A DNA stretch of 64,000 nt from Escherichia coli (GTDB lineage Bacteria > Pseudomonadota > Gammaproteobacteria > Enterobacterales > Enterobacteriaceae), in assembly GCF_003018115.1 (NCBI RefSeq), contig NZ_CP027457.1. The stretch is one strand, 5' to 3'. Made by a program: the position numbers and the translations under genes. Under the pieces are notes generated by a model. It was not told where the DNA came from, did not search any database, and saw only the letters and a program-made list of their open reading frames with translations. Of the stretch, positions 3,847-20,948 are shown piece after piece. Numbering within the stretch: position 1 is the stretch's first letter; the number at the start of each line of letters is the position of its first letter.

Positions 3847-4992
3847 ATGACAAATAATGAAAGCAAAGGGCCGTTTGAAGGCTTATTAGTTATCGATATG
3901 ACACATGTCCTTAATGGACCTTTCGGAACTCAACTTCTTTGTAATATGGGCGCACGGGTAATTAAAGTTGAGCCGCCGGGCCATGGTGATGATACCCGCA
4001 CATTTGGTCCCTATGTGGATGGACAGTCACTCTATTACAGTTTTATTAATCATGGCAAAGAGAGTGTGGTTCTTGATTTAAAGAATGATCACGATAAAAG
4101 TATATTTATAAATATGCTTAAACAAGCTGATGTATTAGCTGAGAATTTTCGCCCAGGTACAATGGAAAAACTAGGGTTTTCATGGGAAAGGTTACAAGAA
4201 ATCAACCCGCGCCTCATATATGCTTCATCGTCAGGTTTCGGACATACCGGTCCGCTAAAAGATGCTCCTGCCTACGATACCATCATTCAGGCAATGAGCG
4301 GGATAATGATGGAAACAGGGTACCCTGATGCTCCGCCAGTGCGTGTTGGTACCTCTCTTGCGGATCTATGCGGCGGTGTTTATTTATTCAGCGGAATAGT
4401 GAGTGCACTTTATGGCCGCGAAAAGAGCCAAAGAGGGGCGCATGTCGATATAGCGATGTTTGATGCCACGCTGAGTTTTCTGGAGCATGGTCTGATGGCA
4501 TATATTGCGACAGGGAAGTCACCACAACGCCTGGGAAATCGCCATCCCTACATGGCACCTTTTGATGTTTTCGATACTCAGGATAAGCCGATTACGATTT
4601 GTTGTGGTAATGACAAGCTTTTTTCTGCGTTATGCCAGGCACTGGAGCTTACGGAACTGGTTAATGATCCCAGATTTAGCAGCAATATTTTACGCGTACA
4701 AAACCAGGCTATTCTTAAACAATATATTGAGCGGACGTTAAAAACGCAGGCAGCTGAAGTTTGGTTAGCCAAAATACATGAAGTCGGTGTGCCCGTAGCG
4801 CCGTTATTAAGTGTGGCTGAGGCCATTAATTTGCCACAAACTCAGGCGAGAAATATGTTGATTGAAGCCGGAGGAATAATGATGCCGGGTAATCCGATAA
4901 AAATCAGCGGCTGCGCGGACCCGCATGTTATGCCGGGAGCGGCAACGCTCGACCAGCATGGGGAACAAATTCGCCAGGAGTTCTCATCATAA
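3847..4992 (+). CDS. yfdE: Acetyl-CoA:oxalate CoA-transferase (type III CoA-transferase family)
   Basis: ORF-track frame 3808..4992; start placed at internal ATG (MTNNESKG...) downstream of the terminator; paralogous to frc. Confidence 0.88.
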   Translation: MTNNESKGPFEGLLVIDMTHVLNGPFGTQLLCNMGARVIKVEPPGHGDDTRTFGPYVDGQSLYYSFINHGKESVVLDLKNDHDKSIFINMLKQADVLAENFRPGTMEKLGFSWERLQEINPRLIYASSSGFGHTGPLKDAPAYDTIIQAMSGIMMETGYPDAPPVRVGTSLADLCGGVYLFSGIVSALYGREKSQRGAHVDIAMFDATLSFLEHGLMAYIATGKSPQRLGNRHPYMAPFDVFDTQDKPITICCGNDKLFSALCQALELTELVNDPRFSSNILRVQNQAILKQYIERTLKTQAAEVWLAKIHEVGVPVAPLLSVAEAINLPQTQARNMLIEAGGIMMPGNPIKISGCADPHVMPGAATLDQHGEQIRQEFSS

Positions 4993-13830: not shown

Positions 13831-14061
13831 TTAGATGATAAATGACAGCAGGAATGTGCCCGCCAGAGCGACGACTGAAGCGATAAATGTCGCTGTCGTA
13901 TAGTATTTAAATGTTTCATTGAGCGTAGCGCCGCAATATTGCTTCACCAGCCAGAAAAGCGAGTCCATAACGATCGTGCAGCCAATCGCGCCTGAACCGA
14001 TAGCAATCGCAATAATTTCCGGGCTGATGTCGGGATACAGCGGCAGCACAATGATCCATAT
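13831..14061 (-). pseudogene. dsdX: 3-prime remnant of D-serine permease gene dsdX (about 75 C-terminal codons only)
   Basis: Hydrophobic GntP-like C-terminal segment directly upstream of dsdA; frame closed by TAA at 14062-14064; no upstream dsdX sequence and no dsdC. Confidence 0.75.
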
Positions 14062-14291: not shown

Positions 14292-15287
14292 ATGGCTTCA
14301 TTAAAGGATGTCGCACGCCTGGCGGGAGTGTCGATGATGACAGTCTCCCGGGTGATGCATAATGCAGAATCTGTGCGTCCTGCAACGCGTGACCGCGTAT
14401 TGCAGGCAATCCAGACCCTGAATTATGTTCCTGATCTTTCCGCCCGTAAGATGCGCGCTCAAGGACGTAAGCCGTCGACTCTCGCCGTGCTGGCGCAGGA
14501 CACGGCTACCACTCCTTTCTCTGTTGATATTCTGCTTGCCATTGAGCAAACCGCCAGCGAGTTCGGCTGGAATAGTTTTTTAATCAATATTTTTTCTGAA
14601 GATGACGCTGCCCGCGCGGCACGTCAGCTGCTTGCCCACCGTCCGGATGGCATTATCTATACTACAATGGGGCTGCGACATATCACGCTGCCTGAGTCTC
14701 TGTATGGTGAAAATATTGTATTGGCGAACTGTGTGGCGGATGACCCAGCGTTACCCAGTTATATCCCTGATGATTACACTGCACAATATGAATCAACACA
14801 GCATTTGCTCGCGGCGGGCTATCGTCAACCGTTATGCTTCTGGCTACCGGAAAGTGCGTTGGCAACAGGGTATCGTCGGCAGGGATTTGAGCAGGCCTGG
14901 CGTGATGCTGGACGAGATCTGGCTGAGGTGAAACAATTTCACATGGCAACAGGTGATGATCACTACACCGATCTCGCAAGTTTACTCAATGCCCACTTCA
15001 AATCGGGCAAACCAGATTTTGATGTTCTGATATGTGGTAACGATCGCGCAGCCTTTGTGGCTTATCAGGTTCTCCTGGCGAAGGGGGTACGTATCCCGCA
15101 GGATGTCGCCGTAATGGGCTTTGATAATCTGGTTGGCGTCGGGCATCTGTTTTTACCGCCGCTGACCACAATTCAGCTTCCACATGACATTATCGGGCGG
15201 GAAGCTGCATTGCATATTATTGAAGGTCGTGAAGGGGGAAGTGTGACGCGGATCCCTTGCCCGCTGTTGATCCGTTGTTCCACCTGA
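14292..15287 (+). CDS. cscR: LacI-family sucrose operon repressor CscR
   Basis: ORF-track frame 14094..15287; start placed at MASLKDVARLAGVSMMTVSRV (LacI-type HTH), C-terminal periplasmic-binding-like sugar domain; adjacent to cscA/K/B. Confidence 0.85.
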   Translation: MASLKDVARLAGVSMMTVSRVMHNAESVRPATRDRVLQAIQTLNYVPDLSARKMRAQGRKPSTLAVLAQDTATTPFSVDILLAIEQTASEFGWNSFLINIFSEDDAARAARQLLAHRPDGIIYTTMGLRHITLPESLYGENIVLANCVADDPALPSYIPDDYTAQYESTQHLLAAGYRQPLCFWLPESALATGYRRQGFEQAWRDAGRDLAEVKQFHMATGDDHYTDLASLLNAHFKSGKPDFDVLICGNDRAAFVAYQVLLAKGVRIPQDVAVMGFDNLVGVGHLFLPPLTTIQLPHDIIGREAALHIIEGREGGSVTRIPCPLLIRCST

Positions 15288-15294
15288 TATTATG

Positions 15295-16728
15295 CTAACC
15301 CAGTTGCCAGAGTGCCCCATGTTGCACCACAGCCACTCCGTGGGAGGCATAAAGCGACAGTTCCCGTTCTTCTGGCTGCGGATAGATTCGACTACTCATC
15401 ACCGCTTCCCCGTCGTTAATAAATACTTCCACGGATGATGTATCGATAAATATCCTTAGGGCGAGCGTGTCACGCTGCGGGAGGGGAATACTACGGTAGC
15501 CGTCTAAATTCTCGTGTGGGTAATACCGCCACAAAACAAGTCGCTCAGATTGGTTATCAATATACAGCCGCATTCCAGTGCCGAGCTGTAATCCGTAATG
15601 TTCGGCATCACTGTTCTTCAGCGCCCACTGCAACTGAATCTCAACTGCTTGCGCGTTTTCCTGCAAAACATATTTATTGCTGATTGTGCGGGGAGAGATA
15701 GATTGATGCTGCTGGCGTAACGACTCAGCTTCGTGTACCGGGCGTTGTAGGAGTTTGCCATTGCTCTCTGATAGCTCGCGCGCCAGCGTCATGCAGCCTG
15801 CCCAGCCTTCACGTTTTGAGGGCATTGGCGATTCCCACATATCCATCCAGCCGATAACAATACGCCGACCATCCTTCGCTACAAAGCTTTGTGGTGCATA
15901 AAAGTCATGCCCGTTATCAAGTTCAGTAAAATGCCCGGATTGTGCAAAAAGTCGTCCTGGCGACCACATTCCGGGTATTACGCCACTTTGAAAGCGATTT
16001 CGGTAACTGTATCCCTCGGCATTCATTCCCTGCGGGGAAAACATCAGATAATGCTGATCGCCAAGGCTGAAAAAGTCCGGACATTCCCACATATAGCTTT
16101 CACCCGCATCAGCGTGGGCCAGTACGCGATCGAAAGTCCATTCACGTAATGAACTGCCGCGATAAAGCAGGATCTGCCCCGTGTTGCCTTGGTCTTTCGC
16201 CCCGACTACCATCCACCATGAGTCGGCTTCACGCCACACTTTAGGATCGCGGAAGTGCATGATTCCTTCTGGTGGAGTGAGGATCACACCCTGTTTCTCG
16301 AAATGAATACCATCCCGACTGGTAGCCAGACATTGTACTTCGCGAATTGCATCGTCATTACCTGCACCATCGAGCCAGACGTGTCCGGTGTAGATAAGTG
16401 AGAGGACACCATTGTCATCGACAGCACTACCTGAAAAACACCCATCTTTGTCATTATCGTCTCCTGGCGCTAGCGCAATAGGCTCATGCTGCCAGTGGAT
16501 CATATCGTCGCTGGTGGCATGTCCCCAGTGCATTGGCCCCCAGTGTTCGCTCATTGGGTGATGCTGATAAAACGCGTGATAACGATCGTTAAACCAGATC
16601 AGGCCGTTTGGATCGTTCATCCACCCGGCAGGAGGCGCGAGGTGAAAATGGGGATAGAAAGTGTTACCCCGGTGCTCATGAAGTTTTGCTAGTGCGTTTT
16701 GCGCCGCATGCAATCGAGATTGCGTCAT
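15295..16728 (-). CDS. cscA: Sucrose-6-phosphate hydrolase / invertase CscA (GH32)
   Basis: GH32 motif WMNDPNG, RDP and EC motifs; ORF-track frame 15295..16737 with start likely at MTQSRLH. Confidence 0.9.
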   Translation of the reverse strand: MTQSRLHAAQNALAKLHEHRGNTFYPHFHLAPPAGWMNDPNGLIWFNDRYHAFYQHHPMSEHWGPMHWGHATSDDMIHWQHEPIALAPGDDNDKDGCFSGSAVDDNGVLSLIYTGHVWLDGAGNDDAIREVQCLATSRDGIHFEKQGVILTPPEGIMHFRDPKVWREADSWWMVVGAKDQGNTGQILLYRGSSLREWTFDRVLAHADAGESYMWECPDFFSLGDQHYLMFSPQGMNAEGYSYRNRFQSGVIPGMWSPGRLFAQSGHFTELDNGHDFYAPQSFVAKDGRRIVIGWMDMWESPMPSKREGWAGCMTLARELSESNGKLLQRPVHEAESLRQQHQSISPRTISNKYVLQENAQAVEIQLQWALKNSDAEHYGLQLGTGMRLYIDNQSERLVLWRYYPHENLDGYRSIPLPQRDTLALRIFIDTSSVEVFINDGEAVMSSRIYPQPEERELSLYASHGVAVVQHGALWQLG

Positions 16729-16762
16729 TTTAATCATCCTGGTTAAGCAAATTTGGTGAATT

Positions 16763-16774
16763 GTTAACGTTAAC
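16763..16774. promoter_or_regulatory. Putative CscR operator 1 (12-bp perfect palindrome GTTAACGTTAAC)
   Basis: Perfect palindrome with CG centre typical of LacI-family operators, in cscA/cscK divergent promoter region; identical second copy 64 bp away. Confidence 0.55.
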
Positions 16775-16807
16775 TTTTATAAAAATAAAGTCCCTTACTT
16801 TCATAAA

Positions 16808-16823
16808 TGCGATGAATATCACA
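16808..16823. promoter_or_regulatory. Putative CRP site between csc operators
   Basis: tgcga-N6-tcaca resembles CRP consensus TGTGA-N6-TCACA. Confidence 0.35.
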
Positions 16824-16826
16824 AAT

Positions 16827-16838
16827 GTTAACGTTAAC
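16827..16838. promoter_or_regulatory. Putative CscR operator 2 (GTTAACGTTAAC)
   Basis: Second identical palindrome, same flanking T..T, upstream of cscK. Confidence 0.55.
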
Positions 16839-16943
16839 TATGACATTTTGTGATCGAATATGCATGTTTTAGTAAATCCATGACGATTTTGCGAAAAAGA
16901 GGTTTATCACTATGCGTAAGTCAGATGAATTTAAGGGAAAAAA

Positions 16944-17858
16944 ATGTCAGCCAAAGTATGGGTTTTAGGGGATGCGGTAGTAGATCTCTTGCCAGAATCA
17001 GACGGGCGCCTACTGCCTTGTCCTGGCGGCGCGCCAGCTAACGTTGCGGTGGGAATCGCCAGATTAGGCGGAATAAGTGGGTTTATAGGTCGGGTCGGTG
17101 ATGATCCTTTTGGTGCGTTAATGCAAAGAACTCTGCTAACTGAGGGAGTCGATATCACGTATCTGAAGCAAGATGAATGGCACCGGACATCCACGGTGCT
17201 TGTCGATCTGAACGATCAAGGGGAACGTTCATTTACGTTTATGGTTCGCCCCAGTGCCGATCTTTTTTTAGAGACGACAGACTTGCCCTGCTGGCGACAT
17301 GGCGAATGGTTACATCTCTGTTCAATTGCGTTGTCTGCCGAGCCTTCGCGTACCAGCGCATTTACTGCGATGACGGCGATCCGGCATGCCGGAGGTTTTG
17401 TCAGCTTCGATCCCAATATTCGTGAAGATCTATGGCAAGACGAGCATTTGCTCCGCTTGTGTTTGCGGCAGGCGCTACAACTGGCGGATGTCGTCAAACT
17501 CTCGGAAGAAGAATGGCGACTAATCAGTGGAAAAACACAGAACGATCGGGATATATGCGCCCTGGCAAAAGAGTATGAGATCGCCATGCTGTTGGTGACT
17601 AAAGGTGCAGAAGGGGTGGTGGTCTGTTATCGAGGACAAGTTCACCATTTTGCTGGAATGTCTGTGAATTGTGTCGATAGCACGGGGGCGGGAGATGCGT
17701 TCGTTGCCGGGTTACTCACAGGTCTGTCCTCTACGGGATTATCTACAGATGAGAGAGAAATGCGACGAATTATCGATCTCGCTCAACGTTGCGGAGCGCT
17801 TGCAGTAACGGCGAAAGGGGCAATGACAGCGCTGCCATGTCGACAAGAACTGGAATAG
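16944..17858 (+). CDS. cscK: Fructokinase CscK (PfkB/ribokinase family)
   Basis: 304-aa ORF with PfkB signature DSTGAGDAF; between cscA and cscB. Confidence 0.88.
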   Translation: MSAKVWVLGDAVVDLLPESDGRLLPCPGGAPANVAVGIARLGGISGFIGRVGDDPFGALMQRTLLTEGVDITYLKQDEWHRTSTVLVDLNDQGERSFTFMVRPSADLFLETTDLPCWRHGEWLHLCSIALSAEPSRTSAFTAMTAIRHAGGFVSFDPNIREDLWQDEHLLRLCLRQALQLADVVKLSEEEWRLISGKTQNDRDICALAKEYEIAMLLVTKGAEGVVVCYRGQVHHFAGMSVNCVDSTGAGDAFVAGLLTGLSSTGLSTDEREMRRIIDLAQRCGALAVTAKGAMTALPCRQELE

Positions 17859-17929: not shown

Positions 17930-19177
17930 ATGGCACTGAATATCCCATTCAGAAATGCGTACTATCGTTTTGCATCCAGTTACTCATTTCTCTTTTTTAT
18001 TTCCTGGTCGCTGTGGTGGTCGTTATACGCTATTTGGCTGAAAGGACATCTAGGGTTGACAGGGACGGAATTAGGTACACTTTATTCGGTCAACCAGTTT
18101 ACCAGCATTCTATTTATGATGTTCTACGGCATCGTTCAGGATAAACTCGGTCTGAAGAAACCACTCATCTGGTGTATGAGTTTCATCCTGGTCTTGACCG
18201 GACCGTTTATGATTTACGTTTATGAACCGTTACTGCAAAGCAATTTTTCTGTAGGTCTAATTCTGGGGGCGCTCTTTTTTGGCTTGGGGTATCTGGCGGG
18301 ATGCGGTTTGCTTGACAGCTTCACCGAAAAAATGGCGCGAAATTTTCATTTCGAATATGGAACAGCGCGCGCCTGGGGATCTTTTGGCTATGCTATTGGC
18401 GCGTTCTTTGCCGGCATATTTTTTAGTATCAATCCCCATATCAACTTCTGGTTGGTCTCGCTATTTGGCGCTGTATTTATGATGATCAACATGCGTTTTA
18501 AAGATAAGGATCACCAGTGCGTAGCGGCGGATGCGGGAGGGGTAAAAAAAGAGGATTTTATCGCAGTTTTCAAGGATCGAAACTTCTGGGTTTTCGTCAT
18601 ATTTATTGTGGGGACGTGGTCTTTCTATAACATTTTTGATCAACAACTTTTTCCTGTCTTTTATGCAGGTTTATTCGAATCACACGATGTAGGAACGCGC
18701 CTGTATGGTTATCTCAACTCATTCCAGGTGGTACTCGAAGCAGTGTGCATGGCGATTATTCCTTTCTTTGTGAATCGGGTAGGGCCAAAAAATGCATTAC
18801 TTATCGGTGTTGTGATTATGGCGTTGCGTATCCTTTCCTGCGCGCTGTTCGTTAACCCCTGGATTATTTCATTAGTGAAGCTGTTACATGCCATTGAGGT
18901 TCCACTTTGTGTCATATCCGTCTTCAAATACAGCGTGGCAAACTTTGATAAGCGCCTGTCGTCGACGATCTTTCTGATTGGTTTTCAAATTGCCAGTTCG
19001 CTTGGGATTGTGCTGCTTTCAACGCCGACTGGGATACTCTTTGACCACGCAGGCTACCAGACAGTTTTCTTCGCAATTTCGGGTATTGTCTGCCTGATGT
19101 TGCTATTTGGCATTTTCTTCCTGAGTAAAAAACGCGAGCAAATAGTTATGGAAACGCCTGTACCTTCAGCAATATAG
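17930..19177 (+). CDS. cscB: Sucrose:H+ symporter CscB (MFS, oligosaccharide:H+ symporter family)
   Basis: 415-aa 12-TMS ORF MALNIPFRNAYYRFASSYSF...; LacY-like. Confidence 0.9.
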   Translation: MALNIPFRNAYYRFASSYSFLFFISWSLWWSLYAIWLKGHLGLTGTELGTLYSVNQFTSILFMMFYGIVQDKLGLKKPLIWCMSFILVLTGPFMIYVYEPLLQSNFSVGLILGALFFGLGYLAGCGLLDSFTEKMARNFHFEYGTARAWGSFGYAIGAFFAGIFFSINPHINFWLVSLFGAVFMMINMRFKDKDHQCVAADAGGVKKEDFIAVFKDRNFWVFVIFIVGTWSFYNIFDQQLFPVFYAGLFESHDVGTRLYGYLNSFQVVLEAVCMAIIPFFVNRVGPKNALLIGVVIMALRILSCALFVNPWIISLVKLLHAIEVPLCVISVFKYSVANFDKRLSSTIFLIGFQIASSLGIVLLSTPTGILFDHAGYQTVFFAISGIVCLMLLFGIFFLSKKREQIVMETPVPSAI

Positions 19178-19239: not shown

Positions 19240-19420
19240 TAAAATGCTTAGCCCTGGTGACTGCTCCCCGCCCTGTCGGGCGAGGCTTCCCACTTCTTAA
19301 GCTGCAACCGTCTGTGTGACGGATTTACGCTGGCCTCCATGGGCAGAAACGACGAGTCCCGCCGCTTGTAATTCCAGTATGCCCTTGCGTTTGATGTTGA
19401 GCGCCGCGTTGATATCGCGG
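19240..19420 (-). ncRNA. Putative TnpB-associated omega RNA (reRNA) at tnpB 3-prime end and IS right end
   Basis: Inferred from the architecture of IS200/IS605 TnpB systems; subterminal hairpin ccccgccc-tgtc-gggcgagg at 19266-19285, 12 nt past the tnpB stop; exact boundaries not determinable by eye. Confidence 0.3.
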
Positions 19421-20466
19421 TCATGTTCAACTCCACACTCTGGACACTGCCAGATGCGCTTATGTAATGGCATCTCCGACATTTTGTGACCGCAGCAGTG
19501 GCAGATTTTCGAACTGGCGAACCATTGATCCAGTTTCACCAGATGCACACCTTTCTCTGTTGCTTTGTATTCCAGTTTTGTGATGAATCCAGACCATCCA
19601 GCATCGCCTATCGCACGAGCCAGATGGTGATTTTTCATCATATTTGCCGTTTTCAATGTCTCGACAATTACCGCTTGGTTTTCGTCAACAATTGCGCGAG
19701 ATAACTTGTGCTGGAAATCGGCACGGGCACTGGCTACCCGTTCGTGAACGGCTGCAAGTTGTATTCTGGCTTTGCGCCTGTTTGCGCTCCCTTTTTTCTT
19801 ACGGGACAGTGCTTTCTGCTTCCGGCGAAGGTTGCGACTTGCATTGATTAGGTGGCGGGGACTGGCAATTTTATTGCCGTCCGATTTGATGACAAAATGC
19901 GCCAGCCCCATATCCAGCCCTGTCACATTTGATATCAGTGCGGGCTTTGCCGGCGCTTCCATCCCGTCGTCACAGAGTAACGACGCGTAGTATTTCCCGG
20001 TTGCGCTGCGGCTCAACGTGATACTTTTCAGCATTCCCGTAATTTCACGATGTAAACGCGCTTCAATCGGCAAGATTTTCGGTATTTTTATCGCACCATC
20101 AAGGACTTTTATGCCAACACAATGATAGCTCGATTGTCTGCCGTGTTTACTTTTAAAGGTAGGTTTACCTGCTTTCAGTTTCGGATTGAAAAAGTTAGAA
20201 AAAGCCACGTCGAGGTTAATTACCGCCTGCTGCAACGCAATAGAATCATATTCTTTAAGCCATCCATACCGGCGGGATTTCTTCGCCACTGCAAGCAGTG
20301 GTTTGAGGTCTTTACGCGGGTTTAAATTTACGCGGTGCCGCTGGTAAGAATGTTTCTTGATATGCAGAGCTTTGTTGTACGCAAAACGCACTGCACCGAA
20401 CTGGGCGTTGATAAATTCAGCCTGTTCTGGTGTCGGGTAGATGCGTACTTTTGTTGCTCTTAACAT
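19297..20466 (-). CDS. tnpB: TnpB (OrfB) RNA-guided endonuclease-like protein, RuvC-like with zinc finger
   Basis: 389-aa ORF; RuvC-I GLDMGL, RuvC-II VIVETLK, Zn finger CHCCGHK..CPECG, RuvC-III HDRDINAALNI. Confidence 0.9.
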   Translation of the reverse strand: MLRATKVRIYPTPEQAEFINAQFGAVRFAYNKALHIKKHSYQRHRVNLNPRKDLKPLLAVAKKSRRYGWLKEYDSIALQQAVINLDVAFSNFFNPKLKAGKPTFKSKHGRQSSYHCVGIKVLDGAIKIPKILPIEARLHREITGMLKSITLSRSATGKYYASLLCDDGMEAPAKPALISNVTGLDMGLAHFVIKSDGNKIASPRHLINASRNLRRKQKALSRKKKGSANRRKARIQLAAVHERVASARADFQHKLSRAIVDENQAVIVETLKTANMMKNHHLARAIGDAGWSGFITKLEYKATEKGVHLVKLDQWFASSKICHCCGHKMSEMPLHKRIWQCPECGVEHDRDINAALNIKRKGILELQAAGLVVSAHGGQRKSVTQTVAA

Positions 20467-20522
20467 AATCAGCGCTCATTGATATAATTCTTTTATTTTA
20501 ACGCTTTAGGTGAATATATCAA

Positions 20523-20948
20523 TTGAGTAATCATGATGATTTACTGGCGGGATTTCTCCGCAAACGACACAGTGTCAGTAAGCTGGTTGTGCACCTTATT
20601 TTTACGACAAAGTATCGACGCAAACTATTCGACAGTCAGATGATCGCTCAGTTGCGTGAGGCTTTTGGCTCCGCTGCGGCAAAGCTTGAATGCGAAATTA
20701 TTGAGATGGACGGGGAGCCAGACCATGTACACCTGCTGGTTGCCTACCCGCCAAAACTGGCGGTCAGTGTGATGGTCAATAATTTAAAATCGGTATCATC
20801 ACGTTTGCTACGCCAGCAGAACGCGCATTTACGTATGCAGAGTAAAACGGGGCTTTTGTGGTCGAGATCGTACTTTGTCTGTAGCACCGGAGGGGCAACG
20901 ATTGAAACGCTCAGAGCCTACGTTCAGAGTCAGTCAACACCTGATTGA
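20523..20948 (+). CDS. tnpA: IS200-type Y1 (HUH) transposase TnpA
   Basis: HUH motif HVHLL and catalytic Tyr region SYFVCSTGGA; annotated frame begins at TTG so true start uncertain; hairpin terminator at 20954-20973. Confidence 0.85.
   Translation: MSNHDDLLAGFLRKRHSVSKLVVHLIFTTKYRRKLFDSQMIAQLREAFGSAAAKLECEIIEMDGEPDHVHLLVAYPPKLAVSVMVNNLKSVSSRLLRQQNAHLRMQSKTGLLWSRSYFVCSTGGATIETLRAYVQSQSTPD

Follow-up and report, generated by a model that had tools for sequence, protein, structure and literature searches.

Twin palindromes of the Escherichia coli csc control region as CscR operators, and their conservation together with CRP sites across Enterobacterales

The two identical 12-bp palindromes that lie between the divergently oriented cscA and cscK genes of Escherichia coli are operators of the sucrose repressor CscR. 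This assignment is published, correct but ordinary, since the feature has been known since 2002 and the interpretation given to it in the original prediction is the textbook one. In the 64,000-nt stretch of DNA that we analyzed (hereafter the window), the cscA-proximal operator (O1) and the cscK-proximal operator (O2) alternate with two CRP sites in the order CRP2-O2-CRP1-O1 (Table 1), and it is highly likely that the palindromes serve as CscR operators within this module and work there as proposed. Our additions are incremental and partly inferential. They concern the breadth and rigidity of the conservation, an extended operator consensus of 18-20 bp, the presence of CRP2 in what would be an ancestral module with a single promoter, and another possible -10 element for cscA.

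The window carries the chromosomal csc sucrose regulon of E. coli, next to dsdA and a remnant of dsdX. All four neighbors that had been assumed from the letters of the sequence (cscR, cscA, cscK, and cscB) were borne out by protein family scans and by the annotation of a matching strain. In the RefSeq annotation, cscA starts at 16728 rather than at the first ATG of its ORF (16737), which fits an AGGA located eight bases upstream, and the intergenic region therefore corresponds to 16729-16943. The region delimited originally, 16738-16943, is thus indeed cscA/cscK intergenic DNA, but its left edge had to be moved. A 261-bp query covering the control region matches E. coli F9792 at 100% identity. 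Among 5426 complete E. coli genomes, 2663 carry the control region at no less than 95% identity, in every case on the chromosome.

Table 1. Coordinates of the genes, operators, CRP sites, and candidate promoter elements of the csc locus in the window
Feature	Position	Strand	Sequence or product	Relation or basis
cscR	14292-15287	+	LacI-family repressor, 331 aa	Convergent with cscA; NCBIfam LacI-family matches, strain annotation
cscA	15295-16728	-	Invertase/sucrose hydrolase, GH32, 477 aa	TIGR01322, 480 bits; annotated cscA
Candidate cscA -10, model B	16760-16765	-	AACAAT	Overlaps O1 3' end on the cscA strand; start A at 16753
AAT flank of O1	16760-16762		AAT	Near-invariant: 44, 39, and 40 of 44
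Operator O1, cscA-proximal	core 16763-16774; extended 16759-16778		core GTTAACGTTAAC; extended AATTGTTAACGTTAACTTTT	Palindrome, matrix, conservation
Candidate cscA -10, model A	16782-16787	-	TATTTT	Start ~16774, first base of O1
CRP1-O1 interval			~17 bp variable; short block cTTt; variable stretch ending aaa	T of cTTt invariant, 44/44
CRP1	16808-16823		TGCGATGAATATCACA	Center 16815.5; 3 bp from O2, 33 bp from O1
Operator O2, cscK-proximal	core 16827-16838; extended 16823-16842		core GTTAACGTTAAC; extended AAATGTTAACGTTAACTATG	Upstream operator of the conserved module
Gap CRP2 to O2			~9 bp	
CRP2	16849-16864		TGTGATCGAATATGCA	Center 16856.5; 41 bp from CRP1, on the opposite side of O2
Candidate cscKB -10 region	16901-16911	+	GGTTTATCACT	GTTTATCA invariant in seven E. 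coli-type sequences
cscK	16944-17858	+	Fructokinase	NF006957, 506 bits
cscB	17930-19177	+	LacY-type sucrose permease	TIGR00882 oligosaccharide MFS transporter, 595 bits
TnpB/InsQ family gene	19297-20466	-		F9792 annotation
ISEc46-family tnpA	20523-20948			F9792 annotation

The surroundings of the locus also deserve description. Between dsdA and cscR, a 72-aa C-terminal remnant of dsdX is left (13831-14049, minus strand), which RefSeq lists as a pseudogene. It marks the junction, already known, at which csc has taken the place of dsdC and dsdX. At the other end, directly downstream of cscB, the annotation of the matching strain F9792 places an IS200/IS605-type element (19297-20948). Most RefSeq records listed for the control-region query name cscK "aminoimidazole riboside kinase" and cscA "sucrose-6-phosphate hydrolase." The product of cscK passes the NCBIfam fructokinase equivalog (506 bits, for a cut-off of 450), and for a non-PTS pathway such as csc, both RefSeq names mislead. 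A natural variant, E. coli MDP9-27 (L082, NZ_CP146515.1, 3030-3040), has lost the entire control region together with cscK and the 5' end of cscB, so that cscA abuts a truncated permease pseudogene and both operators are gone together with both CRP sites.

The regulation of csc has been described repeatedly, the operators and Crp sites having first been reported in 2002 and taken up again in 2013, 2014, and 2024. As cited in the most recent of these papers (PMC11251922), Jahreis et al. (2002) found a 12-bp inverted repeat twice in the cscA-cscK interval and described both copies as putative operators of CscR, one copy having been hit by an up-regulating or derepressing mutation; they placed a Crp-cAMP site there as well. 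The same 2024 paper describes the Crp-cAMP site as adjoining the -35 region and the operators as flanking the -35 and -10 elements, with the downstream operator covering the start site. It further states that both the repeats and the Crp site are conserved in the csc loci of Citrobacter and Kluyvera. According to PMC3938415 (2014), CscR represses the divergent cscA and cscKB via intergenic operator sites, and the bidirectional promoter contains two cAMP-Crp sites. In that study, a mutation of the "cscKB operator" with which cells can grow on low sucrose was re-isolated, and a cyaA::Tn5 mutant was unable to use sucrose. Loss of cscR derepresses the csc genes. Catabolite repression of csc is likewise described in the literature, and a comparative reconstruction of LacI-family regulons counts CscR among the sucrose regulators (PMC4052901). 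Our literature search, in which Jahreis 2002 and Sabri 2013 were represented by the papers that cite them, found no report of direct CscR-DNA binding by EMSA or footprinting. A full-text search for the literal GTTAACGTTAAC returned unrelated cloning primers only.

In the window, GTTAACGTTAAC occurs twice with no mismatch, each time as a perfect 12-bp palindrome with a central CG, and the four flanking bases (16762, 16775, 16826, and 16839) are all T, so that the description of two identical, CG-centered palindromes flanked T..T holds to the letter. A central CG is typical of LacI-family operators. The start-to-start distance of the two copies is 64 bp, and their near-identity extends to 17 nt, AA(T/A)TGTTAACGTTAACT. 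There is no third copy in the 64-kb window, the next-best site of a mismatch-tolerant search having two mismatches. A matrix built from 43 orthologous loci scores O1 at 31.7 and O2 at 30.9 bits, for a maximum of 33.6, and reveals no further operator in the window, where the next-best score is 1.3 bits. In particular, neither the mismatch search nor the matrix scan found a CscR operator upstream of cscR in this window, as might be sought for autoregulation. The symmetrized operator consensus is AAATGTTAACGTTAACATTT, which spans 18-20 bp, and the T..T flanks thus belong to the site itself. Both the palindrome, GTTAA-CG-TTAAC with its central CG, and this extended form have the architecture of a LacI/GalR-family operator, and a cognate LacI-family gene, cscR, is present within the locus, 1.4 kb from the palindromes, its product giving full-length matches to LacI-family models.

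Could such a pair have arisen as a functionless chance duplication of an AT-rich palindrome, that is, as two tandem HpaI sites? The intergenic region has an A+T content of 71%, and the frequency of single palindromes is as expected, with 17 perfect 12-bp palindromes in the window for 15.6 expected, which means that palindromes as such are not enriched. The repetition is another matter. GTTAACGTTAAC is the sole 12-bp palindrome present twice in the window; 8 of 200 composition-preserving shuffles produced some repeated palindromic 12-mer anywhere in the window, and the number of such pairs expected within the 215-bp intergenic region, given its local composition, is ~2e-10. Moreover, the operators are perfectly conserved amid diverging flanks and the pair is found again in 64 of the 80 loci, one per species, which already refutes a chance origin; we give it a vanishingly small probability.

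To measure this conservation, we scanned one genome for each species, using CscA as the anchor, and obtained 80 loci (859 kb) with CscA identities of 53-97%. We found 137 sites within one mismatch of the 12-mer, where ~2 were expected, and 128 of them are paired, in 64 of the loci. The spacing within pairs is rigid, amounting to 64 bp in 43 loci, 63 bp in 11, 62 bp in 3, and 68-69 bp in the remaining 7, which belong to Proteus. The pair is present in Citrobacter, Tatumella, Pluralibacter, Yersinia, Rahnella, Serratia, Erwinia, Pantoea, Klebsiella, Kosakonia, Providencia, and others, beside CscR orthologues of only 48-73% identity and in differing gene orders. As a rule, the pair precedes a transporter-invertase operon, and cscR is placed either downstream in convergent orientation or upstream in divergent orientation, the latter being the case in Klebsiella- and Providencia-type loci. 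Closer to home, in an alignment of seven E. coli-type sequences, all 24 operator columns are invariant, compared with 60 of the 189 columns elsewhere in the intergenic region.

The motif also follows the repressor gene. Almost all of the 64 pair-bearing loci have a CscR orthologue within 5 kb, while three Lonsdalea loci without a nearby CscR homologue lack the motif. Two loci, in Tatumella sp. JGM118 (L005) and Serratia sp. Ag1 (L071), have the operator pair and no CscR homologue in their 5-kb flanks; there, the repressor may be encoded elsewhere or may have been lost, leaving orphan operators. The loci together give a clean phylogenetic footprint, which goes with the repressor gene and supports operator function. 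An RNA hairpin, a mobile element, and chance were each rejected as explanations of the palindromes on the strength of this tracking. The Proteus loci (L044, L047-L050, L054, and L057; ~4818-4900) form a case of their own, with a variant pair (GATAACGTTAAC and GTTATCGTTAAC) 68-69 bp apart, no recognizable CRP1 between the paired sites, and no CscB homologue nearby, and thus represent a module that is wired differently.

The same pattern bears on the identity of the repressor, since the palindromes could instead, or in addition, be bound by another LacI-family protein with a related half-site, such as GntR or IdnR, which would tie the sucrose genes to gluconate signals. The GntR consensus ATGTTACCCGTAACAT (PMC10450161) and the CscR consensus ATGTTAACGTTAACAT share the outer ATGTTA...TAACAT and agree at 13 of 16 positions. 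In addition, among named NCBIfam models, the best scoring for CscR are CytR (top) and Pseudomonas aeruginosa GntR (NF052440), though both are far under their cut-offs. Against this stand the association of the motif with CscR orthologues and sucrose genes across genera, the central four bases, which differ from those of GntR and are invariant here, and the window sites themselves, which depart from ATGTTA/TAACAT in one half (AATTGTTAAC..., ...GTTAACTAT). Genetics, furthermore, assigns repression to cscR. We therefore hold binding mainly or additionally by such another LacI-family protein to be very improbable; cross-talk with GntR or IdnR at the csc operators is conceivable but unsupported. 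The model of the E. coli gluconate repressor (NF011563) scores much lower on CscR than the two named above.

The second component of the module is CRP. The half-site pair at CRP1, which had been noticed as lying between the two palindromes, matches TGTGA-N6-TCACA at 9 of 10 positions (one mismatch). By itself this match is not significant, the window containing 23 matches with two or fewer mismatches for 27 expected, and support for CRP1 therefore comes from its conservation across species, not from the sequence match. In most of 43 stacked loci, the corresponding position reads TGTGATTAACATCACA, a perfect consensus, and the site thus stands as a conserved element between the operators. CRP2 (TGTGA-N6-ATGCA) matches the CRP consensus at 7 of 10 positions. 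Its TGTGAT half is invariant in E. coli-type loci and nearly invariant in the 43 loci, where the site reads atGtgat.t.gATCACA on the cscA strand. The extended O2 site is separated by 3 bp from CRP1 and by 7 bp from CRP2. O2 is also bracketed by an exact 8-nt inverted repeat, ATCACAAA and TTTGTGAT, at 16818-16825 and 16847-16854. These repeats correspond to the inner half-sites of CRP1 and CRP2 and lend the middle of the control region an approximate larger symmetry centered on O2.

The anatomy of the module was read from a stack of 44 sequences, namely the window and the 43 loci whose paired sites are 64 bp apart, oriented toward cscA. The conserved order is CRP2, O2, 3 bp, CRP1, 33 bp, and O1. 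On the cscA side, two geometries would fit these sequences. In model A, the -35 and -10 elements lie between the operators, as in the literature, although the choice of the hexamer TATTTT is our own. The seven E. coli-type sequences share TAT(T/C)TT, whose conservation does not extend to the other genera, and this -10 would put CRP1 at -41.5 and CRP2 at -82.5. In model B, a TTt at the invariant T of the CRP1-O1 interval would be the -35-like element, separated by an 18-bp spacer from a -10 element, TAACAAT, overlapping O1. The base located seven positions past the T of this -10 is an A in 32 of 44 loci, and the elements would be centered at ~-15.5 for O1, ~-62.5 for CRP1, ~-79.5 for O2, and ~-103.5 for CRP2. 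Model B is supported by the AAT flank of O1, which is more conserved than the symmetric flank of O2 and is not the ATT that symmetry predicts. In Klebsiella-type loci, the sequence corresponding to TAACAAT is TACCAT. A further candidate -10 for cscA, TATAAA (16776-16781, minus strand), was rejected because it is unconserved even among E. coli-type loci.

On the cscKB side, a candidate -10 region is GGTTTATCACT, within which GTTTATCA remains invariant even in Pluralibacter, where CscK identity is 65%. This would put CRP2 near -61. A simple sigma-70 and terminator scan of 16650-17000 returned no sites, which fits weak, activator-dependent promoters. We found no experimentally mapped csc transcription starts in the literature search.

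These geometries affect how each operator should act. In the simple reading, which is that of the original prediction and of reviews, there is one operator per promoter, with O1 occluding the cscA promoter, O2 occluding the cscKB promoter, and a single CRP site serving both. Each palindrome does lie nearer to its own gene. However, the pair, its 64-bp spacing, and CRP1 3 bp away are kept before single transporter-invertase operons, which indicates that the pair predates, or is independent of, the divergent arrangement. Moreover, the conserved CRP2 lies between O2 and cscK, so that a CRP-dependent cscKB start would be at least 60 bp downstream of O2, too distant for occlusion. We consequently regard one operator per promoter as improbable; E. 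coli appears to have reused one conserved promoter module for a divergent promoter. The proposal that the layout is the one expected for a LacI-family repressor controlling two divergent promoters under catabolite control is supported, with one nuance. The repressor and the catabolite control agree with the CscR and Crp literature and with conservation, but the layout is not specific to divergent promoters, as the same pair, spacing, and CRP site precede single, non-divergent operons in many genera.

The mechanism that we favor, in which both palindromes are CscR operators of the CRP2-O2-CRP1-O1 module, would operate as follows. One CscR dimer would bind each palindrome, as the core of an 18-20-bp site. 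CscR aligns to residues 5-313 of LacI and is thus without the C-terminal tetramerization helix, which is why one dimer per palindrome is expected. Without inducer, CscR at O1 would cover the core promoter or start region of cscA and block RNA polymerase, since O1 overlaps one or the other in both models A and B. CscR at O2, wedged between CRP1 and CRP2, would probably prevent CRP binding or CRP-polymerase contacts. Exclusion of CRP, or of its contacts with polymerase, is the likeliest action of O2 because its edges are so close to both CRP sites, whereas at the cscKB promoter CscR on O2 is unlikely to stand in the way of RNA polymerase, given the conserved CRP2 between O2 and cscK. Occupancy of O2 would accordingly silence the cscA promoter as well as the divergent cscKB promoter, and both would fire in the presence of sucrose (the putative inducer) and cAMP-CRP. 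The operator-promoter geometry, anti-activation at O2, and cooperation between the sites are the inferred parts of this scheme. A distance of 64 bp amounts to about six helical turns and would allow two dimers to cooperate across CRP-bent DNA, but CRP-promoter geometry by itself could also account for a fixed spacing, which is no proof of cooperation.

A bolder version of this scheme, to which we give only tentative credence, would make CRP2-O2-CRP1-O1 an ancient and rigid single-promoter module across Enterobacterales, with the -10 TAACAAT on O1, CRP1 at ~-62, O2 acting by exclusion of CRP, and cscKB repressed purely via O2. If true, the published picture would need refining, and the csc module would represent a layout like that of lac O3-CRP-O1, built for a dimeric repressor. 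A close solved homologue of CscR, deposited merely as "Transcriptional regulator" (PDB 6NDI; full length, E value 1.8e-114), could serve to model the CscR-operator complex.

Beyond confirmation, the importance of these findings is small. The csc control region is widely used for engineering sucrose-utilizing production strains. As a modest practical gain, the extended consensus and the strict spacing define a portable, CRP-dependent, and CscR-repressible promoter module. The geometry further suggests that mutations in O2 would derepress both directions, which is relevant when cscA and cscKB are to be tuned separately.

The closest known system is the csc control region of E. coli EC3132 and W (Jahreis 2002, J Bacteriol 184:5307; Sabri 2013, AEM 79:478), which is the same locus and displays the two 12-bp inverted repeats, the Crp site(s), and the divergent cscA and cscKB as described here, with no substantive difference. 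Among other LacI-family systems, lac is alike in having an auxiliary operator upstream of the CRP site and a main operator at the promoter or start site. In lac, O3 lies at -82, CRP at -61.5, and O1 at +11, to which the csc counterparts under model B would be O2 at ~-79.5, CRP1 at ~-62.5, and O1 at ~-15.5. However, the two csc operators are identical and strong while lac O3 is weak, and csc adds a second CRP site upstream as well as a divergent promoter. LacI-style looping by a single tetramer is not expected for CscR, whose alignment to LacI ends before the tetramerization helix. CytR promoters such as deoP2, in which a LacI-family repressor site lies between two CRP sites as at csc, suggest anti-activation. 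The CRP sites are 52-53 bp apart at CytR promoters, rather than 41 bp as at csc. Furthermore, the CscR operator is a perfect palindrome and presumably needs no CRP, and csc has a second operator at the core promoter.

The sucrose PTS of pUR400 offers a functional parallel, since at scrY two inverted repeats bound by ScrR lie on either side of the -35/-10 region, the downstream repeat covering the start, with CRP upstream, much as at csc (PMC11251922). ScrR nevertheless belongs to a different, FruR-like orthologous group, CscR giving only a weak match to TIGR02417; the ScrR operators are 14 bp long and of another sequence, and the effector of ScrR is fructose or fructose-1-phosphate. Finally, the GntR operator ATGTTACCCGTAACAT (PMC10450161) has outer half-sites, ATGTTA and TAACAT, that are identical to those of the CscR consensus, but the central four bases set the two apart, being ACGT in CscR rather than CCCG, and GntR governs a different regulon.
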